A stretch of 64,000 nt of DNA, from NCBI RefSeq assembly GCF_030013595.1, contig NZ_CP122768.1. One strand, written 5' to 3'. Position 1 is the first letter of the stretch. Every line of letters starts with the position of its first letter. The notes under the pieces were generated by a model. That model saw only the letters and a program-made list of their open reading frames with translations, had not been told where the DNA came from and ran no database searches. Position numbers and translations under genes: made by a program. Origin of the DNA: Escherichia coli. GTDB lineage: Bacteria; Pseudomonadota; Gammaproteobacteria; Enterobacterales; Enterobacteriaceae. Shown in pieces: positions 29,275 through 58,887 of this stretch.

Positions 29275-29787
29275 TCAGCCAAGCCCAAGCGCGGAACGGA
29301 TACGGTCAGGCACAATGTCCTTGCCGTCCTTCCGGTAGATGTGGTTCAACAGGTCGATTTCCCACAGCGGGCGATCGTTAACGCTCAGCTTGTAGTAGGT
29401 GTTTTTGACAGCGTAAGTGTGTGATGTGGCTTCGCCCTGTTTGGCTTCCCCCATATCAATTTCCGTCACACGCCCGCGCATCTCGATTTCATACAGATCA
29501 CTTTCTGCATCGGTGTAGTATTCACCCGCAAAACGCAGCAGCGTGCCGTCAATCGTGCCGCCATATTTAAGGAACAGCGCACGAACAGCTCCCCCCATAA
29601 CAAAACTCGCATCAAGCGCGGAGTCGTCCAGACCGAGATCAATACTTACCGCCCCCATCATGCCACCACCACGATAGCTGTCGGTTTTGCGCGTCAGTTT
29701 GGGCGGCGTGACGGATGTCACTTTACCCACTTCGTTTTCACCATCCACAAACAACGTAAAAAAGCGAAGATGTTTTGGTACAGCCAT
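29275..29787 (-). CDS. FII: Tail tube protein (P2 gpFII)
   Basis: 170 aa, directly downstream of the sheath gene. Confidence 0.85.
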   Translation of the reverse strand: MAVPKHLRFFTLFVDGENEVGKVTSVTPPKLTRKTDSYRGGGMMGAVSIDLGLDDSALDASFVMGGAVRALFLKYGGTIDGTLLRFAGEYYTDAESDLYEIEMRGRVTEIDMGEAKQGEATSHTYAVKNTYYKLSVNDRPLWEIDLLNHIYRKDGKDIVPDRIRSALGLG

Positions 29788-30971
29788 CAGACACCTCCCA
29801 GCACCGCAAATGCGGGACCAAAGAATTCATCAGTAAACGTCTGGTAAAGCTCCATGTCTTCCAGTGGCGGAACGGGCGTATATTTGTAGCGAATACGCAC
29901 ACGTCCCTGACGTAAATCCGTGGTGCCGTTATCCACCACGTCATACCAGCACTCCGCACCAATCAGTTTCCCGGCAGTAACCAGCGAATCCAGTTTTGCT
30001 CTGATGGCACTGATAACATCCTTCACGTTCGCAGGCGTCAGTGGACTGTCGATGGTTTCAAACTGCGCTTCCGCAATTGAATCAGCCAGCACCTGTGCGG
30101 TTCGGGTATACACCTCAAAGATGTAGGCGTTCGTTTCCGGTGTGCGGTTGCCCCAGAAGCGGAACCCGTTGCGACGAATAATGGTCGTGATTTCTTTGTT
30201 GTTGAGGCTGTTGGCATCACTGTCTTCAGCCTGCAACGACCAGAACACATGCCTCGACATCCCCAGCACATTTTTAACCGGAACGTTGGACAGCGATTTG
30301 TGCCAGCCCTGCTCATGGTCAATGTACGCACGAAGGCCGCACGCATAGGCAGGCGCGGGGAACGTTTCGTTTTCGCCACTTTTCGGGTTGTAGGCGATGA
30401 AGTCCGGCCACAAGAGCATCACCTCACGTTCGTTGAATTTCTGGCGGTAGGTAATCGCTTCAGCCATCGTGTTACAGCCGTGACATGCGGCATACACAAA
30501 CGCGCGCAGTTTACCCGCAATCACGCACAGGGATTTTGTCACCGCCTCCGTGTCCAGCTCCGGCGCGGCCAGAATACGCGGACGGTATCCGATGCTTTCA
30601 TCCTGCTCTGCAACAAGCAGCGCATACATCCCCGTATAGCTGCCGTCATCCTCAGAACCACCGATAACCAGTTGATCCTGCGTCTTACCGTCTTCTTCTT
30701 TGTGTTCAGCCACGCGAACGACGATCACCTTTGTGCTCACCTGGTCTGCGATGGCCTTAAGCGCACGATAAAGCGTCCCCGTTGTTCCGCATTTTCCCAG
30801 CACGTCATTGACGCGGGTCAGCAGTGTGGGCTTGTTCAGCGGGAACAGCTTCGCGTCCGCATCATCCGCCGTTGCCACGATACCGATAACGCTGGAATCA
30901 ACATCGTTAATCGCTGTTACCAGGTCGGTATTTTCCGTAACACGGGCACCATGAAAACGAGTTTCACTCAT
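29787..30971 (-). CDS. FI: Tail sheath protein (P2 gpFI)
   Basis: 394 aa with conserved sheath blocks (GFRFWGNRT, YTRTAQV, YKYTPVPPLE). Confidence 0.9.
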   Translation of the reverse strand: MSETRFHGARVTENTDLVTAINDVDSSVIGIVATADDADAKLFPLNKPTLLTRVNDVLGKCGTTGTLYRALKAIADQVSTKVIVVRVAEHKEEDGKTQDQLVIGGSEDDGSYTGMYALLVAEQDESIGYRPRILAAPELDTEAVTKSLCVIAGKLRAFVYAACHGCNTMAEAITYRQKFNEREVMLLWPDFIAYNPKSGENETFPAPAYACGLRAYIDHEQGWHKSLSNVPVKNVLGMSRHVFWSLQAEDSDANSLNNKEITTIIRRNGFRFWGNRTPETNAYIFEVYTRTAQVLADSIAEAQFETIDSPLTPANVKDVISAIRAKLDSLVTAGKLIGAECWYDVVDNGTTDLRQGRVRIRYKYTPVPPLEDMELYQTFTDEFFGPAFAVLGGV

Positions 30972-32396: not shown

Positions 32397-33032
32397 TTAG
32401 CGAGCTAATATATTCAAAGAATTTAACAATTGAGTGTCGAGTGTTTCAGTTGCAGGAATCGGTAATCCATTCGCAATGCGGTAATTTTTCACAGACAGCC
32501 TTGTGGATGGCCCCATTATGCCGTCAATATTTCCGTTATAAAATCCCCTGTCCAGCAATGCGAACTGAACTCGCATAATCAATCGCTTACGTTTCTCTGC
32601 ATCAGAAGCAAGCCCATTACTCGTACGGTTAACCTCTGAAGTTCCAACAGAACTCGTGTTAGTGGTTCTATTATTATCGTTAGAACGAAGTGCACGCACC
32701 GAGGAAGAGGACGATGAGGAACTTGCACCTGAACTTGAAGAACCAGATGAACTTGGTGAGCTGTATGTTTTTGGATAATAGGGGGTACTTCCACCATAGT
32801 ATCCACCACCTGATGAGGATCTATGAGAGCTATGGCTCCTATGAGAACTATGGCTTCGATGCCCTGCGATATAAAATGGGACTTCCGTGTTAAGTGGAGC
32901 TATCACTAAATCATGCTCATTAAGAGTCATACCAGGTAAATCACTCGCTCCTGTAGATGAATCGCTTGCCCATACAGAATTGTTGAGAGCCAAAAATCCC
33001 GGAAGTAGAGCAGCAAAATTAAACTTTTTCAT
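32397..33032 (-). CDS. hxsA: His-Xaa-Ser repeat protein HxsA: secreted precursor with Gly/Ser/Tyr-rich linker and C-terminal peptidoglycan-binding domain
   Basis: Signal peptide MKKFNFAALLPGFLALNNSVWA; HRSHSSHRSHSSHRS repeats; C-terminus LLDRGFYNGNIDGIMGPSTRLSVKNYRIANGLP resembles PG_binding_1; ATGA overlap with hxsC. Confidence 0.8.
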   Translation of the reverse strand: MKKFNFAALLPGFLALNNSVWASDSSTGASDLPGMTLNEHDLVIAPLNTEVPFYIAGHRSHSSHRSHSSHRSSSGGGYYGGSTPYYPKTYSSPSSSGSSSSGASSSSSSSSVRALRSNDNNRTTNTSSVGTSEVNRTSNGLASDAEKRKRLIMRVQFALLDRGFYNGNIDGIMGPSTRLSVKNYRIANGLPIPATETLDTQLLNSLNILAR

Positions 33033-34141
33033 AAAATTGGTCTCGGTGATTGATGAAAACGGCCTTTTGAGGAACTGAAATAGCCAGCACAGGAAGGCTT
33101 CTGAGTACATTCATCACATTCTTTTGGATAGTAATTTTTCCAATCAGAGATCGACTGAACAGCAAGCTCCCTAGCCCTTTCAGGAAGATAACACAAAGGA
33201 TAATTAAAAATTGTCAGAGGTATGCCTGACCTGTATGCAGCGTCTATGGCAGAGATTATTTTCTCACTATAACTACTGTGATCAATGAAGATGGTGGACC
33301 AGTTTTTTCGTGCCCAACCGATAGGCTCCAACCCCATAAGGGAAATCTGATTGATGTTGGAGAACACACGGCCAGCGAATTCTACGATATCATCCAATTC
33401 GGTATAGTTAGCCAGTGTAGGAATAACTCTAAGTTCGATATTAATCCCCAAGTTTCCTGCATTGATTAACCCTTTAACCGTTTCATTAAATGCGCCATCA
33501 CTCCCTACCAGATGATCATGCACAAGTGGTCTTGATGAGTAGAGCGGGATACCAAAGGTGATTTTGATCTTTTTGCTTCGCTTTGCCATTTCCTGTGTAA
33601 AGTTGGTATCAGCAAATTTGCGTCCGTTTGTTAAAACATGTAAAGCAGTATCTGGTGAATTCTCGATGATAAAATCAATGAAGTGAAGGAAGTCATCCCC
33701 ATATAGCAAAGGTTCACCACCGCTGACCCCAACAACTCCGTTCAAGCCAAATGAAGCTATAGCAAGAGCTGATTGGGTAAGTAGCCAGTCATCATTTATT
33801 TTCTTTGGTGGCTGCGAACAAAACAGACACAAGTTATTGCAGCGTTCCGTAACTAAGACAGTATTATGATTGGCTTTGCGTGACAGAATAACGCGTATCA
33901 TATTGCCATTGTTGATTATCCCAATATCTCCATCTTCAATTGACTCAAATAATTCAGTGCTAATAACAGAGAAATCAAAGCATGGTGGAATGGCATCATT
34001 ATTGCCTTCAGCAACTACTAGCAAATTGGGCAAAAAGAATAAAGGGTTCACTGGTTTTTGTTTGCATAACCGATAGAACCCCGTGGGCACGTTCTCTGTA
34101 GAAGCAAAATGAAAGATATCGTTCCTGATAACCTCAGACAT
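33029..34141 (-). CDS. hxsC: Radical SAM maturase (HxsC-type assignment; B/C assignment tentative)
   Basis: CNNLCLFC (Cx3Cx2C) radical-SAM cluster motif; C-terminal CDEC...C cluster; overlaps both neighbours. Confidence 0.8.
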   Translation of the reverse strand: MSEVIRNDIFHFASTENVPTGFYRLCKQKPVNPLFFLPNLLVVAEGNNDAIPPCFDFSVISTELFESIEDGDIGIINNGNMIRVILSRKANHNTVLVTERCNNLCLFCSQPPKKINDDWLLTQSALAIASFGLNGVVGVSGGEPLLYGDDFLHFIDFIIENSPDTALHVLTNGRKFADTNFTQEMAKRSKKIKITFGIPLYSSRPLVHDHLVGSDGAFNETVKGLINAGNLGINIELRVIPTLANYTELDDIVEFAGRVFSNINQISLMGLEPIGWARKNWSTIFIDHSSYSEKIISAIDAAYRSGIPLTIFNYPLCYLPERARELAVQSISDWKNYYPKECDECTQKPSCAGYFSSSKGRFHQSPRPIL

Positions 34142-35522
34142 ATGCCCATCCTTTTAGCATCTCAGCCTTCGAACCACCCTCTGAGATGCAGTTCATCAGA
34201 TACCTGAACATCCCCTTGTGATATTGACAAAACGTTGAACGACTCCTATCACCGACAGGCTCACCCTGTACACTTATGTTCTGGCATGGATCTGAACCAC
34301 AAAATGGTTGATATGCACATGTATCACAACCTGGCAGAGCAAAATTGAACGATGAACTCAATACTGCGTTATAGTAAGGACTATCAGAAAATGATAGCGT
34401 CTTAACTTCACCCGCACTGAACTCCGTTTCAGGATTCACCTTCTGCAACATACGGCTCTCATCGCTACCATATACTCGACCGTCATAATTGAAAAGAATA
34501 CTGTTAAGCACGACTCCACTTGGAGACTTTAAATCCGCATAACCACTAAAACCGGGATTGAAGATCCTTTTCAGATGAATGGAGGCCGAATGTTCCACAA
34601 CCCTTATCCCTTCATTATTAATCTTAAGGATTTCATCTATCAACGAGGCATAGAAGCTGAAGTATTCGTCCATAGAAAAGGTGAAAGAAGCTTTTTGTGC
34701 AAACCCATAGGGACTAACAGGTCGGATAAACATGTCCTTGAGACCAAGAGACAAGTGAGCCTGAACAATCGATTCAGGACGTCTGATAAGCTCTTTAGTA
34801 ACTGTAGTAACCGTTGCAACGCGGCCAGCACCTAAAGAGTGTTTGATAGCCTCTACCCCTGACACTGTTCTACTGTACGCAAGCCCACGACCAAGAATTC
34901 GATTACTGTTGTGAACAACTTCCTCACCATCAAGCGACACAGAGAACGTTATGTTCCGGTCTCTCGACCATTCAATCATATCCTCATTCAAGACAGACAG
35001 ACTTGATGCCACCACCATCTCAAAATTGGTTCTTCCCAGCGTTTCAGCACATTGATCATAGATGCTCTGAATTAAATCAAACCGCAAGAGAGGCTCCCCA
35101 CCCTGTATCTCTATTTTGTAAGGTGGCGTTGATAGTTTTTTAATAGCCGAAATAATATCGGGGATGAGCTCAGGATTTAGGTCGTAACCTGAGGCATTAA
35201 CAGAAGCTCTACTAACCTGGCAATACTTGCATGTATGGTCACAACGTAATGTGGGTACAATCATGAAAATTGGCCTGACAGCCAGTTCATTCATCAATCG
35301 TTTTGCAAAAGCAGAACTTAAAGCATAGGGAGTTATAGCAGATGAGCTTTCACTGGTTATGAAAAGCTTACTTTCTAGCACGTTTGATTGCTCCGAACTA
35401 ATTCGCTCATCAGAAAGATCAATAAGGTCTTGCTCACCAATGAAATGATGAAAACCTGCAAGGTTGCTTATAAACACCTGTCCATTAGGCAATCTGTCAA
35501 AATTAAATGGCATCAATTCCAT
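34134..35522 (-). CDS. hxsB: Radical SAM/SPASM maturase (HxsB-type assignment; B/C assignment tentative)
   Basis: CDHTCKYC (Cx3Cx2C) motif plus C-terminal Cys-rich SPASM-like region (CDTCAYQPFCGSDPC...C). Confidence 0.8.
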   Translation of the reverse strand: MELMPFNFDRLPNGQVFISNLAGFHHFIGEQDLIDLSDERISSEQSNVLESKLFITSESSSAITPYALSSAFAKRLMNELAVRPIFMIVPTLRCDHTCKYCQVSRASVNASGYDLNPELIPDIISAIKKLSTPPYKIEIQGGEPLLRFDLIQSIYDQCAETLGRTNFEMVVASSLSVLNEDMIEWSRDRNITFSVSLDGEEVVHNSNRILGRGLAYSRTVSGVEAIKHSLGAGRVATVTTVTKELIRRPESIVQAHLSLGLKDMFIRPVSPYGFAQKASFTFSMDEYFSFYASLIDEILKINNEGIRVVEHSASIHLKRIFNPGFSGYADLKSPSGVVLNSILFNYDGRVYGSDESRMLQKVNPETEFSAGEVKTLSFSDSPYYNAVLSSSFNFALPGCDTCAYQPFCGSDPCQNISVQGEPVGDRSRSTFCQYHKGMFRYLMNCISEGGSKAEMLKGWAYV

Positions 35523-43670: not shown

Positions 43671-44342
43671 CTATGAAAATGCCGCCTTTTGTTTTGAACG
43701 TGTTCCCTCCACCAACAATAAAGCTTCACCATCCAGCCGATGAAAAATGTGTTTCATTGCAACCCAGTGACCAGTAAATGTCTTGGACCAGTTTTTGGTT
43801 GTTACTCCCACCAGTAACGCCAGTTCCTGGTATTCGTAACCTTCCCCACCAAAAAGCTCAGCTTTTACCGCCTGCGCCGCCAACCAGATCAACGTCTTCA
43901 GGCGCACCAGAGTTTTTCCTGCAATTTTTCTGGTACCGGATTGAGCATTAAATTCAGTCCACGCCCACTGCGTTATCGCGATCTGATGCTCCCAGCAAAT
44001 GCTACCGCTGTAACACCACAGCAGCCAGGCTTTATGATGTTCTTCAAGAGACAGAACGGCGCGTCGCCATGATGATGTCGAAAACTCAACCGGACTGACC
44101 AGGGCAATTGATGAACCTTTCACCAGCGATTGCTTTCCCGGGATCGGTGGATTATCCAGCGTTACTATTTTTCCAGTGACCTTATCGCGGTACCGGATTT
44201 TTTTACGTCTGTAACGCCCTGTATTGAACATGGCATTCTCCTGCCAGGCTTCAAGCTGACCTTTTGTTGCTCCACTCAAATCAGCGGTGGCGATCATGAG
44301 CTGCTCACGCACAAACTGTAAATACTGGTTATTCATGCGCAC
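43671..44342 (-). CDS. Putative late antiterminator Q-like protein
   Basis: Position between rusA and the lysis region; 223 aa; family assignment from memory only. Confidence 0.5.
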   Translation of the reverse strand: MRMNNQYLQFVREQLMIATADLSGATKGQLEAWQENAMFNTGRYRRKKIRYRDKVTGKIVTLDNPPIPGKQSLVKGSSIALVSPVEFSTSSWRRAVLSLEEHHKAWLLWCYSGSICWEHQIAITQWAWTEFNAQSGTRKIAGKTLVRLKTLIWLAAQAVKAELFGGEGYEYQELALLVGVTTKNWSKTFTGHWVAMKHIFHRLDGEALLLVEGTRSKQKAAFS

Positions 44343-44692
44343 TCCAGTTCTGTGATTTTTATCCCCAGCCGACCACCGGGAACAACCTGACCGCGCATAA
44401 TATTAACTTCATCAAACTGCTCATCGTCGATAAGCAGTCCCGCATGTGTCAGCGCATCCAGTGGTGCCTTCAGGATATTGTCCAGGTCGCGGCGGCGCTT
44501 ATCCGGTGGCTCTGCAATAATTTTTATTGCCAGCCTTCCGGACAGGTTTAATTTCAGTCGCTGCTGGCGAACAATAAGCGCCACATCACGGCGATAACGC
44601 TCACCGGCTTTTGATACAAAATATGTGCTGCCACGACGTCGCCAGTAGGTGTTCACCGTTGGCGGGTAAGGCAAAACAAATTCTATCCCCAT
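44333..44692 (-). CDS. rusA: Holliday junction resolvase RusA
   Basis: RRRDLDN...D motif and 119-aa size match RusA. Confidence 0.85.
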   Translation of the reverse strand: MGIEFVLPYPPTVNTYWRRRGSTYFVSKAGERYRRDVALIVRQQRLKLNLSGRLAIKIIAEPPDKRRRDLDNILKAPLDALTHAGLLIDDEQFDEVNIMRGQVVPGGRLGIKITELECA

Positions 44693-44704
44693 CAGTAACC
44701 TCTT

Positions 44705-45754
44705 TTATCCGAGTACGCCTGTTGCAAAGGCGTGATCAAGAAAACGAAAAATTAAATCAACCTGAGAACCATGTTTTTCTTCGAATGCCTGCGGATCCGC
44801 ATGAAGCTCGTTGTGATGCTCCCGACACAGCGGCAACGTAAAAATATCGTGGGCCTTTGTTCCCATCCCTCCCTGACCGTGACCAATCAGGTGATGGGGA
44901 TCGTCGGCTGGCTTACCACAACACGCACACGGCTGTGTCTTCACCCAGCGTGTGTATTTCTCATTTACCCAACGGCGACGTTTAGGTCGCTTCATGAAAG
45001 ATTCCGGAGACTCAGGATCAACGGCAATGCTGACCACCGTCTTTTCCTGTGGTGTGTTCTGTTGCTGGTGGACGTGAGGCAACGGCGCAAGATTTTTTGT
45101 GCGCTGCTTCAGTATGCTGGTGGCGGTCTGCTCTCCCGGTACGATGTCGCTTTCGCGGTAAACCGTGCGGATTTTTTCCGCACGTAATCCCAGAGAACGA
45201 CGTAATACTGCCTCCGGTAGCGCGTCCGCCACCTGATTGCAGACCGCCCACCAGGATAATTCAGCCAGCGATAATTCCCGTTCCTGTGCACCACTTATTG
45301 CGTGACGTATGACGTCAATCATCCAGGCTGTCAGATTTTGTTGAGCAAGCTGCCCGAGTGATTCGGATGTCTGGTCGCGCAGCTGGTTGTCGCAGTGCCA
45401 GCACAACAACATTGCGCCGGTACCGTAACGATGTATGACGGTTTCACTGTGGTGATAGTCTCCATGAGGCCACTGGCAGGATTTAACATGACGCAGGAGC
45501 CAGTCAGACAGTGCGCCAGCGCCGCCAGCAGCACGAATCACACGCTCATCGCTGAAAAACGGCAGCAATGTTTTATCTTCCGCCAGCGGCTGGCGAACGG
45601 CAGGAACGACTCCGGACGGCATACCGCGCATGTTTTTCGGTTCCGGCTCCACCAGCACCCTGCCGTTATGGAATACCTGCATGGATTCACGCCCCGGCTT
45701 AAGGACCACCAGCCCGAGTTCCGGTACCGGAACAGGTCGAAGTAATACCCGCAC
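44705..45754 (-). CDS. Phage nin-region protein with Cys/His-rich C-terminus (YdfU/DUF968-like)
   Basis: 349 aa; CACCGK...HHLIGHGQGG...CREHHNELH zinc-binding-like motif. Confidence 0.5.
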   Translation of the reverse strand: MRVLLRPVPVPELGLVVLKPGRESMQVFHNGRVLVEPEPKNMRGMPSGVVPAVRQPLAEDKTLLPFFSDERVIRAAGGAGALSDWLLRHVKSCQWPHGDYHHSETVIHRYGTGAMLLCWHCDNQLRDQTSESLGQLAQQNLTAWMIDVIRHAISGAQERELSLAELSWWAVCNQVADALPEAVLRRSLGLRAEKIRTVYRESDIVPGEQTATSILKQRTKNLAPLPHVHQQQNTPQEKTVVSIAVDPESPESFMKRPKRRRWVNEKYTRWVKTQPCACCGKPADDPHHLIGHGQGGMGTKAHDIFTLPLCREHHNELHADPQAFEEKHGSQVDLIFRFLDHAFATGVLG

Positions 45755-45755
45755 G

Positions 45756-46082
45756 TTACCTCCAGATGCGTTGCTGGAATGTGCGGGACGGACGCGGCGG
45801 GCGTTCGGAATAAGGGAGCCTGACGTAGATTATCCAGTGATGGTAGTCGAGGCTAAGGGCTTTCTTAAACTCATACCCACGTCTGCGGTAGTTATGAATC
45901 AGCCATTCGGCCTGTTCTTCAGTGCAGGGATCGTGCTGATACCAGTCATATTTGAATGTGTGAGAACACCGCCCTTGCCTGCTGGCAGGGGCGGTATCAG
46001 AATTGTGATGTTTGGTATTGTGCGCCATCGGTTTTCTCTGCTGGCGCAGCAGGTGCCAGTTGTTCAAGCTGGCGTGCGGCAA
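45756..46082 (-). CDS. Hypothetical phage protein
   Basis: 108-aa ORF directly upstream of the DUF968-like gene. Confidence 0.45.
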   Translation of the reverse strand: MPHASLNNWHLLRQQRKPMAHNTKHHNSDTAPASRQGRCSHTFKYDWYQHDPCTEEQAEWLIHNYRRRGYEFKKALSLDYHHWIIYVRLPYSERPPRPSRTFQQRIWR

Positions 46083-46163
46083 TATTGTCTCTGATTTCTG
46101 TTGTCGTCAACAGGCAACGTGCTATCATCGAATGGTGTTCTATCCTACTCCGTGAGGTTTACC

Positions 46164-46421
46164 ATGCGTACAACCCAACAATTCAGCATTACATTAACTA
46201 ACGAAATGGCTGACATGGTGCGCGCCCGTGTGGCTTCCGGTGCCTATGCTTCAGAAAGCGAGGTCATTCGTGAAGGGCTTCGCGCACTGAATGAGCGCGA
46301 TAAAGCAATCGAAGCGTGGTTAACGCATTCAGCCGCCCCCTCTCTTGATTCTATCCGCGAAACCCCAAACAACGGACGCTCCATTTCACAGGTTCGCGCC
46401 GCGATTCGATCCGGGAAGTAA
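46164..46421 (+). CDS. parD: ParD-family antitoxin (ribbon-helix-helix)
   Basis: GTGAGGT ribosome-binding site; ITLTNEMADMVRARVASGAYASESEVIREGLRAL is a typical ParD/CopG fold; paired with downstream toxin. Confidence 0.75.
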   Translation: MRTTQQFSITLTNEMADMVRARVASGAYASESEVIREGLRALNERDKAIEAWLTHSAAPSLDSIRETPNNGRSISQVRAAIRSGK

Positions 46422-46426
46422 TCTGC

Positions 46427-46726
46427 ATGACATATGAAGTCATCATTACTCCTGAGGCCGAACAACAAATAATCAACCTGCACAGGTATATAACGGAGAA
46501 AGCAGGGAACGTCATTGCTGACAATTATGCCAATGCGCTTCTTGATTATCTTGATGGGTTTTCTACATTCCCGCATCGGGGCAATAAACGCGATGATATT
46601 CGCCAGGGGATGCGGGTAACTCATTTCCGCCACAGAACGATTATTGCTTTTGCCGTTGATAGCAGAAAAGTCTTTATTGTCGGTATCTATCATGGTGGGC
46701 AAAGTTATGAAACCGATTTCTTATAA
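46427..46726 (+). CDS. parE: ParE/RelE-family toxin
   Basis: 99 aa, 5 bp downstream of the antitoxin; RelE/ParE-like motifs. Confidence 0.75.
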   Translation: MTYEVIITPEAEQQIINLHRYITEKAGNVIADNYANALLDYLDGFSTFPHRGNKRDDIRQGMRVTHFRHRTIIAFAVDSRKVFIVGIYHGGQSYETDFL

Positions 46727-46930
46727 ACTTTTACCCACATCATTCCGGTGTTAGAATTAACCGTCCGCCCCCTCTCTTACTGGCGGATTCGTAGGCTATA
46801 TAAATCAAAGATCCCGGCTCATGTTTGTGTCGGGATCTTTTTTCGGCGATTTATCCCCAGCGGCAAATCGAATACACCACCAGCGCCACCGCCATCGCAA
46901 TTCCTACCGTTGTGAATGCTTCAGGCCAGG

Positions 46931-47275
46931 TCATCGTAAAATATCCTCCACGCTTATCAGTCCGTTCCGCTCCAGATAACTCATCGCCTTATCCGGTAAT
47001 TTGCAGTCTGGCTTCGCTTTCCTCAGTTGCCAGGTTAACTGCTTTACCAGCATGGTTAACTCATCGACCAGACGCTGATATCCCACTGGTTTGTATTCAT
47101 GCAATTTACCGGCTGGCTCTGCTGCCAGCGATACCAGTGCGATTTCCAGAACAGCAATATCCATCTTATATGTGCGGATGATGTCATGGTCGATTGTGCC
47201 CGGTATGCACAGTCTCTGTGCTTCAATAGTCTCCTCTGCGTGAGCTATTAACTGCTCTCTGGTAAAAGTCGTCAT
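46931..47275 (-). CDS. Hypothetical phage protein
   Basis: 114-aa ORF overlapping the HNH gene stop. Confidence 0.4.
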
Positions 47276-47637
47276 GCCGTAGCCCCTTCTTGATATTTTT
47301 CAAACCAGAACACAACTGGGTCAGATTTCATTTCAACCAATCCCATACGAACCAGCGCTTTGCCTTTCCCGGACGCAAGGAATTCACGACGACCATCACT
47401 GATAATTCGCCGATAATCTTCCAGACTACTGCAATGCTTGTGCAGATTGCATGGGTGGCATGCCGGAACCATGTTGGATATATCGTCACGTTCCTGGTGA
47501 AGCATATTTCCATCAAAACGAATGACCGGTTTTACATGGTCTGCATGCCACTTTTCGCCAAGTTCGCAGCCGCAATAAGCACAGCGACCGCCGAACTTCA
47601 TGCGCAGCTCTGCACGTTGTTTTTTCGTCAGTGCCAT
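47272..47637 (-). CDS. HNH endonuclease
   Basis: CAYCGC...HADHVKP...CHPCN motif. Confidence 0.75.
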
Positions 47638-48566
47638 ATCAGCTTTCCTTATACGGATTAATTTTATTGTGCAGTGTGTTGAACGACGCCCACACCACGT
47701 CGTTATACAATTCAATAACTGGCTCAATTATTTTCACGATAAACCAGACCAGTAATAGCGGGGATATCGGTATCATCAACACGATAAATATAATGAGAAA
47801 CAAAAATTCTGTCGCTCTACTTTTTCTCGGATATTCTTTTCTGAATAATGTAGTCATTTCTTACCGCCCTTTCGGGCGGCCTCCTGACATTAATCATTGT
47901 GATAACTCATAGTTTCATTTGCAGCATCAACTGGATCAACATCCCACCAGCAATAATTTTGGTCGAGTCCTTCAGGTGTCCACGGCTCTAATTCATTTTT
48001 TACCGCATTCTCGTCACCAGTAATTTTAAAAATCTGCTCAGAAAATTTCCTCACCCACTCGTTATATTTTTCCGCATTAATGGTTTTCTGTGTATTTAAC
48101 ATAGATATGCCTCCAGTTAAGGATTTGATTTTATTTACAGTGCTAAATTTAATTATTCAGTTCTGGATTTTGTCGCCCTGCGTATCCGCGCTTTCGCGTT
48201 ACGCTCAATCTGAATTAACTTTTCTATATTTTTCCGTCTTTCCTGTTCCTCCTGGCGCAATAGCCTTACATCATCTGCCAGTCTGGTTTCTCTTTTCGCC
48301 ACAGAGAGCATCCAGTCAAACGGCTCCACAACTGCACCGCAGATTTTACAGCGGACCTGACGCTCTTTTTCGTCAACCCGAACAGAGGCGTGATGACAAT
48401 ATGCTCTTTCCGATGGCTCATAAAGAAAATTAACCTGATTACGTGGGTCATCCTCTTTTACCGGAAATAAAACGATATTGCTTAACTCATCTTCTGGTTT
48501 TATTTCCATGCTCTTCTCCTTTGATGTGAATGCCAGCGGTAATTGAAGCCTGATAGCTAATTTCAT

Positions 48567-48989
48567 TCACAGTATCGCCTCCTGAAATTTACCCTGATAG
48601 AAAGCCAGTACACGCTGCATAGCTGCGCTCTTCCGGCACTCGCTACAGATTATGTTCTGACGCCTGTCGTAGCGGCGTATTTCTCCGTCTGGTAATGACC
48701 AGATAAGGTCCGGATCAACCACAGATGTTTTCTTCAGATTTGCCCTTGAGAGTTTTTTGCGGGCATTTTGCCAGTCCTTACGCGCCTGCGCTGACGGGAA
48801 TAACCCGTAACCAGAGTTGTATACATCGCCGCTGGCAACCAGCTCTCTTGCGAGAACGCTCATCAGATATCTTGTTGCCCCAGTTTTAGCTTCCAGTTGT
48901 CGTAACGTCTCTCGCCCGCTCTGGCGTACGAGATCAACAATCTGCCCTTTAATTTTTTCCCGCTCTTCCTGTGTAAATACTTTTGCCAT
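48567..48989 (-). CDS. Hypothetical phage protein
   Basis: Start at MAKVF with AGGGGAGGG ribosome-binding site. Confidence 0.45.
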   Translation of the reverse strand: MAKVFTQEEREKIKGQIVDLVRQSGRETLRQLEAKTGATRYLMSVLARELVASGDVYNSGYGLFPSAQARKDWQNARKKLSRANLKKTSVVDPDLIWSLPDGEIRRYDRRQNIICSECRKSAAMQRVLAFYQGKFQEAIL

Positions 48990-49005
48990 AAGCCCTCCCC
49001 TGGAA

Positions 49006-49765: not shown

Positions 49766-50227
49766 TCAAACAAAACCAGCCGCTTTCCGGCGTTCATATT
49801 CCTGTTTCAGCAACTCAATTGGCGTTGGTCCCGACGGGTGTTTGGGTGCCGCCAGTTGTCGCCGGACTGGCGGAATGCTCAGGCCATTACCAACATGCTT
49901 TGCCCATTTCGTCAGTTGCCATTCTGCAAGCCGTTTTAACTCCCCTTCGGTCATCTGGCGCTCAATCCCCTTTGAACGCATCTCGAGGCAAATGTGATAC
50001 AGCACAGGCTGAGACCACGGGTACTTATCACTTCCGTCGTATCGCCAGGACTCATTGCGCCAGCGGCGGTACTCCTCCATCACAGCATCCACCGTCAGAC
50101 CAAATGGATTGGCTCCGCTTTCCGAAATCAGCGCCACAAACTCAGCCAGGTCCGGAGGCCATGTTTCACCCGCCCGGCAGCGGTCCATGCACTGGCGGCA
50201 GACCTGCCGGATTTGCTGCTCAGTCAT
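49766..50227 (-). CDS. Replication protein, lambda P-like (helicase loader C-terminal region)
   Basis: DKYPWSQPVLYHICLEMRS...TEGELKRLA parallels lambda P (ESYPWKSNAHYWLVTNLYQ...TDAELRRKA); start set just after the initiator stop. Confidence 0.6.
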   Translation of the reverse strand: MTEQQIRQVCRQCMDRCRAGETWPPDLAEFVALISESGANPFGLTVDAVMEEYRRWRNESWRYDGSDKYPWSQPVLYHICLEMRSKGIERQMTEGELKRLAEWQLTKWAKHVGNGLSIPPVRRQLAAPKHPSGPTPIELLKQEYERRKAAGFV

Positions 50228-51245
50228 CGCGCCAATCTGTGCAATCCAGAGCTTCGAAGGTGCGGCCCCGTTCTTCTGGGTCCAGCGGTTCGAATAAACC
50301 TCCCCCATGAGTTCCCACAGCTTCCAGGCCGTTTCCGTCGCTGATAAATCCGTTTTCACGTTCCCACTGCTCACGTGCTGCCCGAATTTCCTGAACTGCT
50401 CGTGATGCGGTGCCACCTGGTGCTGCTGCATGGTTTACCCCCTTGCTGACTGGTTTAACCTGCGCCCTGACGTGATTTACGTGACGGGCGAATTTCTGCT
50501 CCCACTGAATCTGCGTGAACACTTTCCCCTCCGCTGCCCAGTAGTCCCGGAAGGCTGCAAATTCAGCTGGTGTAAATTCCGGCTCAGGCAGAGCCACTCC
50601 CCACAGAGCAGCCCGTCGTCGAAAATCCGGCGACGGATGCCAGCCATCGGTCATCGGAAATTTCCCGATGGGTTCGCTCATGCCGTCCAGATATTCGGGC
50701 TCCGGTGTCTGCGATGGCGTACCGTTCGACTCACTGGTCGTAGCTCTCTCGCGCACGCGCGCGTTATGTGTGGGGTTTAATTCTTTATCTGTATCTTTAT
50801 CTGTCGTGACTCGTCGTGACATGTCGTGACATATGCGTGACTCGTCGTGACACCCCTCATTCTGTTTTCGTAATTTTTCCCTCTCGCGCTGCGCTCTCTT
50901 GCGCTCTGCCGGGGATTTCGCGGTTTGTGAAACGTTGCCATTGTCCTCTTTCAGTACCTGGCGTTTTTCCCATCCAGTGATTAAATCACCATCAAGTACC
51001 CGCCCCTGCATCGTCTGCAAAATTGAATCAATTACCTCTTCTGTCACGTCGAGCGCACTTGCCAAATCTTCTGTCGTGACATCAATGTGACCTCGCGTGA
51101 CATTTCGTGACGCGCTCACCAGGAGGTGGATATACACTGCCATCACTGTTGCAATTGGCTGCCCTGACACCCTGGCAATTGTTCGCCACTTAGGGTCATT
51201 TGGCATGTCATGCCATAATCTGAGCCAAGCGTTAGCCATACTCAC
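50220..51245 (-). CDS. Replication initiator (YdaU/O-like) containing the origin iterons
   Basis: 341 aa; two clusters of TCGTGAC iterons inside the coding sequence, as in lambda O/ori. Confidence 0.6.
   Translation of the reverse strand: MSMANAWLRLWHDMPNDPKWRTIARVSGQPIATVMAVYIHLLVSASRNVTRGHIDVTTEDLASALDVTEEVIDSILQTMQGRVLDGDLITGWEKRQVLKEDNGNVSQTAKSPAERKRAQREREKLRKQNEGCHDESRICHDMSRRVTTDKDTDKELNPTHNARVRERATTSESNGTPSQTPEPEYLDGMSEPIGKFPMTDGWHPSPDFRRRAALWGVALPEPEFTPAEFAAFRDYWAAEGKVFTQIQWEQKFARHVNHVRAQVKPVSKGVNHAAAPGGTASRAVQEIRAAREQWERENGFISDGNGLEAVGTHGGGLFEPLDPEERGRTFEALDCTDWRDD
50801..51112. repeat. Origin-like iterons: two clusters (about 50801-50853 and 51072-51112) of GTCGTGAC-type repeats at roughly 10-bp spacing
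   Basis: Five and four copies respectively, flanking an AT-rich tract. Confidence 0.6.
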
Positions 51246-51310
51246 CTCTTCTGATACCGAATCTTTTTACTCACGAGTTGCCGGAAGTGATTCGATATGG
51301 CTATTGTCAG

Positions 51311-51736
51311 TCAATGTACTGCCACAGCATTTCCTGCCGGGCCACCACGGTTCATCTGATTGAAACCGGCGATTGCCACTGCGACAAAATCATCAGCGTC
51401 TCTCACCAGTCGCTCCCGCGTCTCCACCAGCTCCCGAAAATAAGCTGAACTGTGGCTGCGCATTCTGGCCACCAGCAAAGGTGGCATTGCCTTTTCGATC
51501 GCTGGTAACAACGTCTGAATTTTTTCAACTGCATCAGGGGTGTCTTTCTCTACCCAGCGGAAAATTTTCTGGGTATTGCGAGCCAGGGCTTCCGGATGGC
51601 TATCGTCATACAGTTCAGGAAACGTCATACCCAACTCAAAATAAGCCTGGGTTATTCCAGCTGCTGGAACTTTTTCGCCATCAGGACGCGCCCAGGCATT
51701 CATCGCCATGCGGATGTGTTCATGCTTGATTTTCAT
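51311..51736 (-). CDS. ydaT: YdaT-like protein (Rac prophage family)
   Basis: Begins MKIKHEHI as I recall E. coli YdaT; 141 aa. Confidence 0.55.
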   Translation of the reverse strand: MKIKHEHIRMAMNAWARPDGEKVPAAGITQAYFELGMTFPELYDDSHPEALARNTQKIFRWVEKDTPDAVEKIQTLLPAIEKAMPPLLVARMRSHSSAYFRELVETRERLVRDADDFVAVAIAGFNQMNRGGPAGNAVAVH

Positions 51737-51758
51737 GAATCATTTGCCTCTTGATGTT

Positions 51759-52055
51759 TCAGGTATGATCAAATGAGGATTTGTTACTGTCATTTAGTTG
51801 CTTCACTGACATATTCTGCGAACAACATGCCGAACGTCGTAAATATGACCAGTCAATATCAGGACGAAGTTCTTCGCACAGAACCTCACCTCTTGTTGCA
51901 CGTTCAATTGCTGGACATCTCTCGGCAGGCAATTGACGTACCCCTTTGATCCATTGATTTACGCTTGGAGGTGATACACCTAAAAGCCTAGCCATTGCTG
52001 ATTGCCCACCGACAACAGCACAAGCTTGCTTGAATGAATAGTTCTCTTTTTTCAT
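51759..52055 (-). CDS. ydaS: Cro-like HTH protein, YdaS-like
   Basis: MKKENYSFKQACAVVGGQSAMARLLGVSPPSVNQW matches my memory of Rac YdaS; divergent from the repressor. Confidence 0.6.
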   Translation of the reverse strand: MKKENYSFKQACAVVGGQSAMARLLGVSPPSVNQWIKGVRQLPAERCPAIERATRGEVLCEELRPDIDWSYLRRSACCSQNMSVKQLNDSNKSSFDHT

Positions 52056-52084
52056 CGAATGAACTCCAAAAACACACAGAAATA

Positions 52085-52151
52085 TTAGGCGACGCCTAAC
52101 ACAAATGTCAATAGGCTGTGCCTAATGCGATAAAGGTAGGAATTGCCTAAT
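52085..52151. promoter_or_regulatory. Operator region: three TTAGGC-n3-GCCTAA-type palindromes between the divergent ydaS-like and repressor genes
   Basis: TTAGGCGACGCCTAA (perfect), ATAGGCTGTGCCTAAT, TAGGAATTGCCTAAT. Confidence 0.6.
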
Positions 52152-52178
52152 ACAATGAGCATAGGAGAATATTAAGCA

Positions 52179-52655
52179 ATGCTTAGTGGTAAAGACTTAG
52201 GCCGAGCGATAGAGCAGGCCATTAACAAAAAAATCGCATCGGGATCCGTCAAATCAAAGGCGGAGGTCGCACGCCACTTCAAAGTCCAACCACCATCAAT
52301 TTATGACTGGATTAAGAAAGGCTCTATAAGTAAAGATAAACTTCCAGAATTATGGCGTTTCTTTTCTGATGTTGTTGGTCCAGAGCATTGGGGGCTTAAC
52401 GAATACCCCATACCAACCCCCACCAATTCAGATACAAAAAGTGAACTTTTAGATATAAACAACCTTTATCAAGCAGCCTCTGATGAAATAAGAGCGATTG
52501 TAGCTTTCCTGTTATCTGGAAATGCTACAGAACCAGATTGGGTTGACCACGATGTTCGCGCCTACATAGCAGCGATGGAAATGAAAGTGGGTAAGTATCT
52601 GAAAGCTCTAGAATCTGAACGGAAAAGCCAGAACATCACAAAAACTGGAACTTAA
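52179..52655 (+). CDS. Prophage repressor (XRE-type HTH, RacR-like position)
   Basis: 158 aa; N-terminal helix-turn-helix; flanked on both sides by the same palindromic operator motif. Confidence 0.6.
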   Translation: MLSGKDLGRAIEQAINKKIASGSVKSKAEVARHFKVQPPSIYDWIKKGSISKDKLPELWRFFSDVVGPEHWGLNEYPIPTPTNSDTKSELLDINNLYQAASDEIRAIVAFLLSGNATEPDWVDHDVRAYIAAMEMKVGKYLKALESERKSQNITKTGT

Positions 52656-52970
52656 ACTTATATGGTCTGACGGAAAACTCCTGGATTCCGTTATTTAACC
52701 CCCCATCACTTTCTGCTGTCGCCATCACCTATTAGGTTACGATCAAAACATTAGGCATAGCCTATTGACAATCAATTAGGCATTACCTATAGTTCCAGCA
52801 TACCACCCACCCCGCCCCACAGAACGCAGGGCAATACTTCGAGTTACCAGGCAGTGGTCAGGGGTTAAGTAGCCAGCCCGAGGCGTAAGAACATGACGGC
52901 AGGGTTCAACTTTAACTATGCAGCAGGTTTTTGTTCCGCCACCCCGGCGTTAAGGGGAAATGAGGTCAGC

Positions 52971-53126
52971 ATGGATACTATCGATCTTGGCAACAGCGAA
53001 TCTCTGGTATGTGGCGTGTTCCCCAACCAGGACGGCACGTTCACTGCGATGACGTATACCAAAAGCAAAACGTTTAAAACCGAATCTGGCGCGCGTCGCT
53101 GGCTGGAAAGAAACTCAGGTGAGTGA
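52971..53126 (+). CDS. Small Rac-type protein (YdaF-like)
   Basis: MDTIDLGNSESLV... 51 aa with AAGGGGAAATGAGG ribosome-binding site; assignment from memory. Confidence 0.4.
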   Translation: MDTIDLGNSESLVCGVFPNQDGTFTAMTYTKSKTFKTESGARRWLERNSGE

Positions 53127-55109
53127 TATGGATTTCGACACAATCATGGAAAAGGCTTACGAAGAATACTTCGAAGGCCTTGCCGAAGGCGAAGAAGCTC
53201 TCAGCTTCAGTGAGTTTAAACAGGCGCTTTCCAGCTCGGCAAAATCTAACGGCTGATAAGCGAAGCAGCACCGCGAGGAATCAGTATGCAGAAACGAGAA
53301 CCCGTCATCATCGCGCCAGACTATACCGATGATGAACTTTATGAGTGGATGCGCCAGAAAATTAATGCAGCGCAGGATCTGAAATGGGCCAATGAAGCCA
53401 GGGCTAAGCAGGCTGAAAATCTGTCCGCTCTGGAGCAGGATATCACCAGGCTGGAAAAAGCAGCGGCATTAAGCATTGCCAGAATGATTTCATACCCGCG
53501 TTAATAGCTAACCAACGAAGCTAAGGTTGGTAATTAAGGAGTTCTCCACGGGTCAGGTGGAGTGCGTGCGCCGGACACGGGTGAGCATCCGGTACGTTCT
53601 TTAAAAATCTGGATAGTCCCAACTTATTTAAACGGTTAATTATCTTGAGTTCATCCAGAACTTATTATTGCAAGCGAGGCAAAAAGTACGAAAATGAGCA
53701 TCAAAGCGCATTATTTCCATTGGCTGAAGTACAGATATTACCTTTTTTCCAAAACATTGTGGGCAAAGATACACAGTTATCTCAGTATCGCCTATAAATT
53801 GCTTCTTGGAATATACAAGGGTTCCAGAATCAAGCTTGTTAAGCTTGTAACCTTCCGCCTGTCGCTGAAAATCTTCTGTCTCTGCAATTTTTGCTTTGAG
53901 ATGCATTATCTCTTCATCACGAAAGCGGATCGCATCGCAAAGAGAGAAGCATTCCGCCTGAAGCGTGATTAGTTTGTTCTGAAGTTCAATAGTTGCGGCT
54001 TTAACTTCTGCATCCGTTTTTGCGTCATTAATAACCTTAGCGAGACCAGCTGTCTCCTTTATCGCAGCCATAGCCGCTGACAGTTCTGCTATCACGTTGA
54101 GTACTCTTCTCGTTGTTGGGGATATCCGGATTATACAAATTTCTTGTTGTTGGGGAATAACAGGAACCACCTCGCCTGACGTGGTTAAAAGCAGGCACAC
54201 AACGCGAAAGCGTACGGCGAGGTAGCTGGTTCATAGATAGCCTGTCGTTAAATTTTCGTCGACCGTGCACTTCCGGTTGTGGCAATCCGCGAAATGGCGC
54301 GGCGGTAAGTATGGCTGGGTTATCCTTACCCCATTAGTGGCACCGGGTTGTCAGGTTGACCATACGCTTAAGTGACAACCCCGCTGCAACAACCCATGTT
54401 GATTACCTTTTGGCGGGTATCCGTTTTTTGTTTTCCCTTGTGATACCCGCCCTTTTTAAAGTGAATTTTGTGATGCGGTGAATGCGGCTCAGCGCACGCG
54501 GAACAGTTAAAAAGGCCAGTTGACTTCCGTATTGGTTCTTATGGGTGGGTTCTCTGTATCCGGCGTTAATTATTAACTGGTTAACGTCACCTGGAGGCAC
54601 CAGGCACCGCATCACAAAATTCATTGTTGAGGATGCGATAATGGAAACGTTATTACCAAACGTCAATACGTCTGAAGGTTGTTTTGAAATTGGTGTCAGA
54701 ATCAGTAACCCTGTATTTACTGAAGATGCCATTAATAAGAGAAAACACGAACGGGAGCTATTAAATCAAATATGCATTGTTTCAATGCTGGCCCGTTTAC
54801 GCCTGATGCAAAAAGGACGATGACAATGAATACAGTATTTGCACTCGTTCTGACGGTTTTTCTTAATACAGGCGAGCCAGTCGATCTTGTTATTGGTATA
54901 CATGACTCAATGAAAGAATGCATGGCTGCCGCAGCGGAACAGAAAATTCCCGGCAACTGTTATCCGGTTGATAAAGTTATTCGCATGGACAATAACGAAA
55001 TCCCGGCAGGACTTAAAACAGCACCGTAATTAATATCCGGTTTCATTTTTATATGCCAGCAATGGCAGGGATTTGTTCACCCTTAAATCTGTAATGAGGT
55101 TAAAACAAA

Positions 55110-57647: not shown

Positions 57648-57899
57648 ATGTACGAATTAACTCTATCGCCAGCAGAGATTCAAGAGATCACGAAATACGA
57701 GCGATACACAAAACAGCAACACCAGTTAAGGCTGCACGGTATCCCATTTGTAATCGGTCCTAAAAACGAACCAATAGTTCTTCGCAGGGATATTCCACAC
57801 GGACTGACTACGATGCCAAAAGCACCTGAACTGGTTTCCGCTGAACCCGATTTTGAGGCGCTGAACAATGGGAAGACCAAGAAAAAACAAAAAAGATAA
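57648..57899 (+). CDS. xis: Excisionase-like protein
   Basis: 83-aa basic protein immediately upstream of and overlapping int. Confidence 0.55.
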   Translation: MYELTLSPAEIQEITKYERYTKQQHQLRLHGIPFVIGPKNEPIVLRRDIPHGLTTMPKAPELVSAEPDFEALNNGKTKKKQKR

Positions 57900-58887
57900 T
57901 GCACTACCACCGCGTGTTAGATCGAATGGTTACAGTTACGTATGGAAACCCGAAGGAAGCACAAGAACTATAGGGCTCGGAAGAGTGCGGGAAACCAGCG
58001 TAGCTAAAGTCTGGCAAAATTATGAGCTGGAAAAAGCAAAACTCCACAACATAATGACAGTAGCTAAATTATGGCACATGTTTATGGACTCCCCTGCATT
58101 TACAGAACTGGCCCCCCGAACCCAAAAAGATTATCGGCAACATCAAAGGGCATTGTTGGCAGTATTCGGAAAAGTGCTTGCTGATAATGTAAAAATTGAA
58201 CAGGTAAGAATTTTCATGGATAAGCGAGGACTTGAGAGCAAGACCCAAGCAAACCATGAACTGGCAAGTCTGAGCCGTGTATACGGATGGGGATATGAGC
58301 GTGGGTATGTGAAAAATAATCCATGCAAAGGAGTCAGAAAATTCACACTTAAAGCCCGTACTGTTTACATCACCGATGAACAGTATGCTGCAATATATGC
58401 GGAAGCAATTCCACAGTTACGTATTGCAATGGAGATATCCTATCTTTGTGCGGCAAGGCTCGGTGATGTACTCGAGCTGAAATGGCAGGATATTATGGAG
58501 AAAGGGATTTACATTGAGCAAAACAAGACCGGCACTAAACAAATCAAGGAATGGTCTCCGCGATTACGTACGGCGATCCAGTTAGCCCGAAATGTATCTT
58601 CCGGCACATGCGAGTATGTGATCAACACAACCAAAGGCGGGAAGGTAATAGCCAAGACGCTGAACAACTGGTGGAATCAGGCTAAACGTGCAGCCGAGCA
58701 AAAAGCCGGCGTTCCGTTTGGGTGCAACTTCCATGACATAAAAGCCAAAGGGATTTCAGATTACGAAGGCAGCAGTCGCGACAAACAAATTTTCAGTGGA
58801 CACAAAACAGAAAATCAGGTGTTGATTTACGATCGTAAAACCAAAATAACACCAACACTGGATTTGCCGCTTGTGGTCAGTAAGTAG
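57868..58887 (+). CDS. int: Tyrosine integrase (lambdoid)
   Basis: 339 aa with ARLGD and H..K...Y-type C-terminal catalytic region; adjacent to the tRNA att fragment. Confidence 0.8.
   Translation: MGRPRKNKKDNALPPRVRSNGYSYVWKPEGSTRTIGLGRVRETSVAKVWQNYELEKAKLHNIMTVAKLWHMFMDSPAFTELAPRTQKDYRQHQRALLAVFGKVLADNVKIEQVRIFMDKRGLESKTQANHELASLSRVYGWGYERGYVKNNPCKGVRKFTLKARTVYITDEQYAAIYAEAIPQLRIAMEISYLCAARLGDVLELKWQDIMEKGIYIEQNKTGTKQIKEWSPRLRTAIQLARNVSSGTCEYVINTTKGGKVIAKTLNNWWNQAKRAAEQKAGVPFGCNFHDIKAKGISDYEGSSRDKQIFSGHKTENQVLIYDRKTKITPTLDLPLVVSK

Follow-up and report, generated by a model that had tools for sequence, protein, structure and literature searches.

A predicted ParD/ParE toxin–antitoxin cassette opposite the early-right genes of an Escherichia coli lambdoid prophage

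The parDE gene pair and its protein families

We analyzed a 64,000-nucleotide stretch of Escherichia coli DNA (contig NZ_CP122768.1, hereafter the window) in which a lambdoid prophage carries two small adjacent genes, parD and parE, that are predicted to encode a ParD-type antitoxin and a ParE-type toxin. On the plus strand, parD (46164–46421, 85 amino acids) runs from an ATG at 46164 to a TAA at 46419–46421, and parE (46427–46726, 99 amino acids) from an ATG at 46427 to a TAA at 46724–46726. The antitoxin gene comes first and a spacer of 5 bp (46422–46426) separates it from the toxin gene on the same strand; the pair at 46164–46726 described in an initial annotation of this DNA proved exact in both the list of open reading frames (ORFs) and the raw sequence. 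A Shine–Dalgarno motif, GAGG (46154–46157, plus strand), can be read from the sequence 6 nt 5′ of the parD ATG and is kept in all loci that we aligned. The GC content of the cassette is unremarkable.

Profile searches place the first protein in the ParD family. It matches Pfam PF03693 (ParD_antitoxin) at E=1.6e-7 and 32.1 bits (cut-off 21), the NCBIfam model TIGR02606 (type II toxin-antitoxin system ParD family antitoxin) at 53.8 bits (cut-off 46.2), and phrog_6494, labeled ‘antitoxin’, at E=1.8e-55. Its N-terminal ribbon-helix-helix (RHH) DNA-binding domain spans about residues 6–51, and residues 3–52 align with the RHH domains of crystallized ParDs (3KXE chain C, 7YCV, 7B22/7R5A, 6X0A chain a, 8C24 chain C and 5CEG chain A); these alignments, together with PF03693 and TIGR02606 scores above their cut-offs, confirm the RHH antitoxin named in the initial annotation. 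The C-terminal residues, 52–85, are the presumed toxin-binding region. We modeled a ParD-(GGGGS)5-ParE fusion with AlphaFold2 (AF2), using a block alignment of homologues of each partner with linker anchors. The resulting model had a predicted template modeling score (pTM) of 0.72, from a tool that outputs neither a contact map nor the predicted aligned error, and its most confident part was ParD residues 51–80, with a predicted local distance difference test score (pLDDT) of 95–97, above that of the RHH domain, whose dimer partner is absent from the construct. The fusion model is consistent with the ParD C-terminus docking onto, or wrapping, ParE.

The second protein matches Pfam PF05016 (ParE_toxin) end to end, at E=4.5e-10 and 40.4 bits (cut-off 23), as well as phrog_5232, labeled ‘toxin’, at E=2.4e-43. 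Since PF05016 spans both ParE and RelE types, we tested the distinction between them separately. An exhaustive HMMER search with the toxin returned 1145 cluster representatives at E≤1e-3, and an 86-sequence alignment of full-length relatives served as a profile that was searched against all PDB sequences. The eight best matches were all ParE toxins: 6X0A (chain 6x0a_A, 3.7e-12), 8C24 (ParE1), 7YCS, 3KXE (ParE1), 5CEG, 6XRW and 5CW7/5CZF (ParE2). Vibrio cholerae ParE2 (7R5A) followed at 5.7e-4, and the sole RelE/StbE entry, 7etr, was a partial match at 1.6e-4. These ParE chains belong to solved ParD–ParE complexes, and several of the same entries supplied the antitoxin chains that align with the RHH domain.

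Structure prediction gave the same answer. The AF2 model of ParE, built on the 86-sequence alignment, has a pLDDT of 89.9 and a pTM of 0.80, and consists of one strand, two helices and three strands. When it was compared with the PDB using Foldseek, ranks 1–23 were all ParE-clade structures, with template modeling scores (TM) of 0.72–0.83 and root mean square deviations (rmsd) of 1.4–2.6 Å; YoeB, RelE, YafQ and HigB appeared from rank 25 only, with TM 0.4–0.64 and E≥3e-3. Aligning the toxin family profile with K-12 RelE by hhalign yielded a probability of 1.3%, and no reliable RelE/YoeB alignment was obtained on which catalytic residues could be mapped. Likewise, no NCBIfam RelE/StbE or Txe/YoeB model matches the toxin at E≤0.01. 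On this profile and model evidence the toxin is clearly ParE-type and not RelE-type, and the profile, fold and hhalign results together led us to reject a RelE-type RNase. The RelE/ParE fold given in the initial annotation therefore holds, in agreement with the PF05016 match, the AF2 model and its Foldseek neighbors, and the choice between the two subfamilies that it had left to further work falls to ParE.

In RefSeq, the NCBI pipeline PGAP labels the two genes ‘ParD family antitoxin’ and ‘RelE/ParE family toxin’, and the GenBank record of the Shiga toxin 2a (Stx2a) phage ArgO145 already terms the pair putative toxin–antitoxin components. A literature search for this exact cassette, combining ArgO145 with toxin–antitoxin, found no papers.

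Transcription signals, cassette boundary and neighborhood

A consensus scan identified a promoter-like site on the plus strand at 46101–46128, composed of a −35 element TTGTCG (46101–46106), a 16-nt spacer and an extended −10 element TGcTATCAT (−10 at 46123–46128), which ends 36 nt 5′ of the parD ATG. Overlapping the −35 element is an imperfect palindrome, GTTGTCGTCAAC (46100–46111), which we regard as a candidate ParD operator. Searching 5′ of parD for a perfect palindromic operator with a 6-nt seed found none, leaving this imperfect 12-mer only.

To locate the cassette boundary, we aligned six loci from three neighborhoods, namely nin-region prophages, the Stx2a phage ArgO145 and an O157:H7 Stx prophage. 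Similarity among them begins abruptly at about 46099, with the sequence farther upstream diverging, and from there to the parD ATG, through the promoter, GTTGTCGTCAAC and the Shine–Dalgarno motif, the six loci are nearly invariant, with four variable positions. Because the similarity across all three neighborhoods starts so abruptly and then remains nearly unbroken up to the start codon, the promoter travels with parDE.

On the far side of the cassette, an intrinsic terminator hairpin lies at 46807–46843, between parE and the minus-strand genes that converge on it. It is composed of AAAGATCCCG, a 14-nt loop, CGGGATCTTT and a T-run, and its 10-bp stem pairs 46807–46816 with 46831–46840. The 14-nt loop explains why a consensus terminator scan, which allows loops of 8 nt at most, found nothing. 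Folding of 46727–46860 as RNA recovers the hairpin in both the minimum free energy and the centroid structure (z = −3.2), and none of 200 shuffled sequences folds as well. In strain GF60 the stem carries a compensatory double change, GAT/ATC to GCT/AGC. The stem also forms on the minus strand, where it is followed by the U-rich tract UUUGAUUU, so that the terminator is possibly bidirectional and may, in the manner of nin terminators, stop early-right transcripts on their way to the antiterminator gene Q as well. A search of 44000–49000 against Rfam families returned nothing except a chance, sub-threshold microRNA match, which gives no evidence for an antisense-RNA component.

Next to the terminator, an unannotated hydrophobic ORF of 27 codons occupies 46851–46934 on the minus strand. 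Its ATG overlaps the TGA of a 114-amino acid gene (ATGA), and the hairpin lies 3′ of it. The ORF is kept as a protein in an O111 prophage (locus L006), with synonymous and conservative changes, and in phage vB_EcoS-689R5 a 36-amino acid ORF is annotated at its position. It has no PHROG match and could be a small membrane protein.

All phage genes that flank parDE are on the minus strand, opposite to the pair, as the initial annotation had stated. On one side lie a small gene (45756–46082), a DUF968/YdfU-like gene (44705–45754), RusA (44333–44692) and antiterminator Q (43671–44342, phrog_304), and on the other the 114-amino acid gene (46931–47275), an HNH endonuclease (47272–47727) and the lambda-P-like and DnaT-domain replication genes (49766–51245), with DUF977 and DUF1627 genes also among the flanking genes. 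Since parDE sits between the replication genes and Q, it occupies the nin-equivalent region, which bears out the nin-region placement made initially. A phage record labels the small gene at 45756–46082 a Rem homologue, and BLASTP against K-12 Rem found nothing. The HNH endonuclease has weak PADLOC matches to PtuB models of Septu (best E=2.9e-8), which are probably generic HNH-domain similarity and not a defense system.

Beyond the replication genes, on the minus strand at 51311–52055, is an immunity region of the Rac/CP-933P type with CII/Cro-like genes: a YdaT-like gene (51311–51736) and a YdaS/Cro-like gene (51759–52055) face a divergent plus-strand gene of 158 amino acids (52179–52655), which has no Pfam match and presumably encodes the repressor. 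Strain EC556 has a prophage that is nearly identical except that it lacks positions 50693–53255, which span this region. We also looked after 52179–52655, beside the YdaS/YdaT region, for a second ParE system of the paaR-paaA-parE type and found no PaaA- or ParE-like ORFs. The integrase gene (57868–58887, plus strand) adjoins yccA.

The prophage keeps its early, nin and lysis genes. Homology to intact relatives ends at about 36907, directly beyond the lysis genes and a few hundred bases short of where the terminase, head and tail genes stand in an intact relative (NZ_CM149870). Left of this junction a P2-like tail cluster abuts the prophage, with a tape measure gene at 25887–28703 and a sheath gene at 29787–30971. 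Also left of the junction are two radical-SAM genes (33029–35522) that the annotation of relatives assigns to a His-Xaa-Ser system as HxsB/HxsC. The P2-like left part and the lambdoid part are contiguous in no complete E. coli genome of our collection.

Distribution, selection and movement between prophages

The cassette was found in 364 of 5426 complete E. coli genomes, with the whole pair present in 327 (∼6%); the 375 copies in these genomes are all chromosomal. The toxin is 100% identical in the Stx2a phages ArgO145, Stx2_09E025 and Stx2_EH2011, whose antitoxin differs at one residue. Salmonella, Yersinia, Enterobacter and Erwinia have close relatives of 62–85% identity. About 200 plasmids, chiefly those of Rhizobiaceae, Burkholderiaceae and Pseudomonas, encode relatives of 45–53% identity adjacent to a ParD gene.

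Between alleles, the ratio of nonsynonymous to synonymous substitution rates (dN/dS) is 0.06–0.32 for parD and 0.05–0.19 for parE, with synonymous divergence (dS) reaching 0.42 for parE. Ratios of 0.05–0.32 indicate that both genes are maintained by purifying selection and, together with family matches that exceed curated cut-offs, that the ORFs are not products of chance. When the window is compared with three further loci (L006, L007 and L008), dS is 0.03–0.07 for parD versus 0.23–0.42 for the adjacent parE, a value 4–10 times lower in parD. Recombination with breakpoints within parDE could account for the low parD dS, as could some additional constraint acting on parD as DNA.

The slot bounded by the small gene beside DUF968 and the following nin gene (46083–46930 in the window) holds differing toxin modules across related lambdoid prophages, as seen in the loci that we compared (L004, 2836–4117; L008, 4045–5282; and K-12 Qin, L005, 4652–5873). 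Phage vB_EcoS-689R5 keeps both flanks of the cassette and has a hok-type ‘host killer’ gene and a hypothetical gene in place of parDE. Strain GXU-23-25-310 carries parDE followed by a lipoprotein-like gene and then hokD, while K-12 Qin has relBE-hokD at the analogous place beside ydfU. The slot thus looks like an exchange site for toxin–antitoxin cassettes.

A different arrangement is seen in ArgO145 (L003, 4331–6024, versus 46164–47950 in the window), where parDE, the 114-amino acid gene, the HNH gene and a gene at the DUF4014 position lie near the integrase, in the early-left and not the nin region. Because the same block is early-left in ArgO145 and in the nin region here, the cassette and its neighbors have moved as a mosaic unit.

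A toxin-less form of ParD is also found. In the O157:H7 PA8 Stx prophage (L002, 3045–4022, versus 46164–46440 in the window), parD is 87% identical at the nucleotide level to the window gene, with a dN/dS of 0.19, and its promoter is retained. Of parE only the initial 14 nt are left, the remainder having given way to genes for a lipoprotein-like and a HigA-like helix-turn-helix protein. About 37 E. coli genomes carry this antitoxin-only form. A published report noted ‘orphan ParD and HigA antitoxins’ in phages of enterohemorrhagic E. coli (EHEC) and termed their relevance unclear (PMC12502783). The PA8-type toxin-less ParD and the HigA-like gene are these orphans (the orphan ParD of O157 Stx phages is WP_001260980.1), and the present cassette is the intact, ancestor-type partner. 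The toxin-less ParD could be an anti-addiction remnant.

Relation to known systems and biological role

By sequence, the pair has every defining feature of a two-component ParDE system and is closest to the ParD3/ParE3-like group. ParD3/ParE3 of Mesorhizobium opportunistum (5CEG; chimeric complex 6X0A) gives both the best profile match and the best fold match to the present ParE. This system, along with the wider group that the Joint Genome Institute labels ‘ParD1/3/4 - ParE1/3/4’, shares the antitoxin-first layout, an RHH ParD of ∼85–93 amino acids and a ParE of ∼100 amino acids. It differs in a toxin identity of 21–24% and in its location on an alpha-proteobacterial chromosome or plasmid, whereas the cassette described here lies in an enterobacterial lambdoid prophage. 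The ParDE systems of Caulobacter crescentus (ParD1/ParE1, 3KXE), Mycobacterium tuberculosis (ParDE1, 8C24), Pseudomonas aeruginosa (6XRW), V. cholerae (ParD2/ParE2, 7R5A) and plasmid RK2 share the toxin fold (TM 0.78–0.81, rmsd 1.4–2.3 Å) and have an alignable ParD RHH domain, and they are the basis on which gyrase poisoning, SOS induction and filamentation may be expected of the present toxin (PMC10899753). Their toxin identity is lower, at 13–19%, and they reside on plasmids, superintegrons or core chromosomes, not in phage morons.

Other prophage-borne systems are more distant. PaaR2-PaaA2-ParE2 of cryptic prophage CP-933P in E. coli O157:H7 (5CW7/5CZF; PMC8630535) likewise places a ParE-clade toxin in an E. 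coli lambdoid prophage, and the CP-933P-type YdaS/YdaT immunity region is also found in the present prophage. However, that system has three components, with a PaaA2 that lacks a DNA-binding domain and a CI-like regulator, and is located in the immunity region, whereas here two components, one of them an RHH ParD, lie in the nin region. The cassette holds no third same-strand gene and its antitoxin has an RHH domain, and the CP-933P toxin is only remotely similar to the present ParE (profile E=1e-5). ParE_SO/CopA_SO of the Shewanella prophage CP4So and PfiT/PfiA of Pf4 each have a ParE-clade toxin that is encoded on a prophage and takes part in the maintenance or production of that prophage (PMC8706911, PMC13048266). 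PfiT is a close structural neighbor of the present ParE at 16–17% identity; both of these systems use other antitoxin families and belong to other phage types. Finally, relBE-hokD of K-12 Qin has the analogous place, just upstream in the early-right direction of the DUF968/ydfU–Q block, but encodes a RelE RNase with RelB as well as Hok, a type I toxin. It shares a strand with the neighboring genes, and RelE has no detectable similarity to ParE.

Considering these comparisons, the locus is probably a canonical two-gene type II ParD/ParE cassette, an autonomously transcribed passenger (‘moron’) opposite the early-right operon of a lambda-like prophage, that would work by the mechanism deduced for ParDE systems. 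Our confidence differs between the parts of this reading. The identity as a ParDE pair is close to certain; DNA gyrase, proposed by analogy, is the reasonable expectation for the ParE target; addiction or stabilization as the main biological role is a tentative proposal, about which we are nearly evenly divided.

In the proposed mechanism, modeled on characterized relatives, ParD would dimerize via its RHH domain, bind the operator at the promoter and repress the operon, while its C-terminal 30–35 residues would wrap and neutralize ParE. ParD is expected to be degraded faster than ParE, such that loss of the cassette or of its expression would leave free ParE to poison DNA gyrase; the DNA would then suffer double-strand breaks, the SOS response would be induced, and cells would filament and stop growing or die. 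The net effect would most likely be addiction, in that cells deleting the prophage segment, or losing the prophage, are counter-selected, and this would help explain the persistence of the cassette even in defective prophages such as that of the window. SOS induction and filamentation follow plasmid loss in the case of RK2 parDE (PMC10899753), addiction was demonstrated for the prophage-borne paaA2-parE2 of CP-933P, which has been suggested to restrict rearrangements (PMC8630535), and ParE_SO-CopA_SO maintains prophage CP4So (PMC8706911). The stabilization or abortive-infection module suggested in the initial annotation is thus a reasonable proposal by analogy, with the nearest precedents being ones of stabilization or addiction and not of abortive infection (PMC8630535, PMC8706911).

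Several points weigh against this interpretation. Toxicity, gyrase targeting, ParD lability and autoregulation are all attributed by homology, and the toxin is 13–24% identical to structurally solved ParEs. Complex formation is supported indirectly, by a fusion model that comes without a contact map, and there is no perfect inverted repeat of at least 7 nt 5′ of parD. A stabilizing effect is also harder to picture for a chromosomal prophage than for a plasmid. Moreover, work on some ParE-clade toxins (PfiT and PrpT) has centered on phage production or plasmid replication and has not treated them as proven gyrase poisons, and for this reason the gyrase target should not be taken for granted.

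Among the alternatives, the cassette could primarily be an anti-phage module acting by abortive infection or superinfection exclusion: an invader would stop host transcription, the labile ParD would decay, and ParE would arrest the cell before the cycle of the invader ends, thereby protecting lysogenic kin. The layout fits such a role, since an opposite-strand moron with its own promoter and terminator is typical of accessory genes expressed in lysogens; in relatives, different toxin systems occupy this slot, namely hok (vB_EcoS-689R5), relBE-hokD (Qin) and parDE with hokD (GXU-23-25-310), and several type II toxin–antitoxin systems are known to defend against phages. Nevertheless, we consider this role unlikely, as no PADLOC-DB v2 defense family matches ParD or ParE at E≤0.01, a kinetic argument weighs against phage defense (PMC10899753), and we found no experimental report of phage defense for this clade.

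A more speculative scenario, to which we give little weight, is that parDE and the toxin-less parD of 933W/Sp5-type Stx phages represent two sides of a contest between prophages. Here parDE would make its carrier addictive, and free ParE in lysogens would also trigger SOS-dependent induction, while rivals would keep only the antitoxin and its promoter as an anti-addiction or anti-exclusion device with which to displace, or coexist with, parDE prophages; the DUF968-adjacent site would in this scenario serve lambdoid phages specifically for exchanging cassettes such as parDE, hok and relBE-hokD.

It is improbable that ParE, instead of poisoning gyrase, modulates the induction, replication or virion production of its own prophage, as proposed for PfiT/PfiA of Pf4 or PrpT/PrpA. 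PfiT (9w3a) and PrpT (7ycs) are among the closest structural neighbors (TM 0.81–0.83), and the cassette is antisense within an early-right unit read through to Q, so lytic transcription could interfere with parDE expression. By profile, however, canonical gyrase-targeting ParEs (3kxe, 8c24, 6xrw and 7r5a) are equally close or closer. In addition, the cassette is intact in a prophage that lacks morphogenesis genes and stands at a quite different genomic position in ArgO145, both of which argue against a position-specific regulatory role.

We regard it as very improbable that the pair is a decaying, non-functional relic: the prophage of the window has no head and tail genes and related Stx phages have already lost parE, but both ORFs are full-length, the toxin is the very one found in inducible Stx2a phages, dN/dS is low (0.05–0.32) with dS as high as 0.42 in parE, and the promoter, Shine–Dalgarno motif and terminator are conserved. 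Least credible of all is that the toxin is a RelE-type ribosome-dependent mRNA endonuclease, since, although PF05016 and the RefSeq label include both kinds and relBE occupies an analogous slot in Qin, the best profile and fold matches are all ParE-clade, RelE and its kin follow only after rank 24, the hhalign and NCBIfam searches against RelE-type families were negative, and the partner antitoxin is ParD-type, not RelB-type.

We therefore return to the ParD/ParE cassette as the best explanation. The pair is an experimentally uncharacterized, already annotated and ordinary member of a well-known family. Given that PGAP, PHROGs and the ArgO145 GenBank record label it already, the finding matters little beyond annotation quality and holds nothing surprising to a specialist. 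What it does provide is a clean ParE, and not RelE, assignment for a toxin carried by ∼6% of complete E. coli genomes and by Shiga toxin phages, an intact cognate cassette for the ‘orphan ParD antitoxin’ of EHEC phages (PMC12502783), and one nin-region slot that is repeatedly occupied by different toxin–antitoxin cassettes. For the Stx phages that carry it, a gyrase poison could couple to SOS-dependent phage induction.

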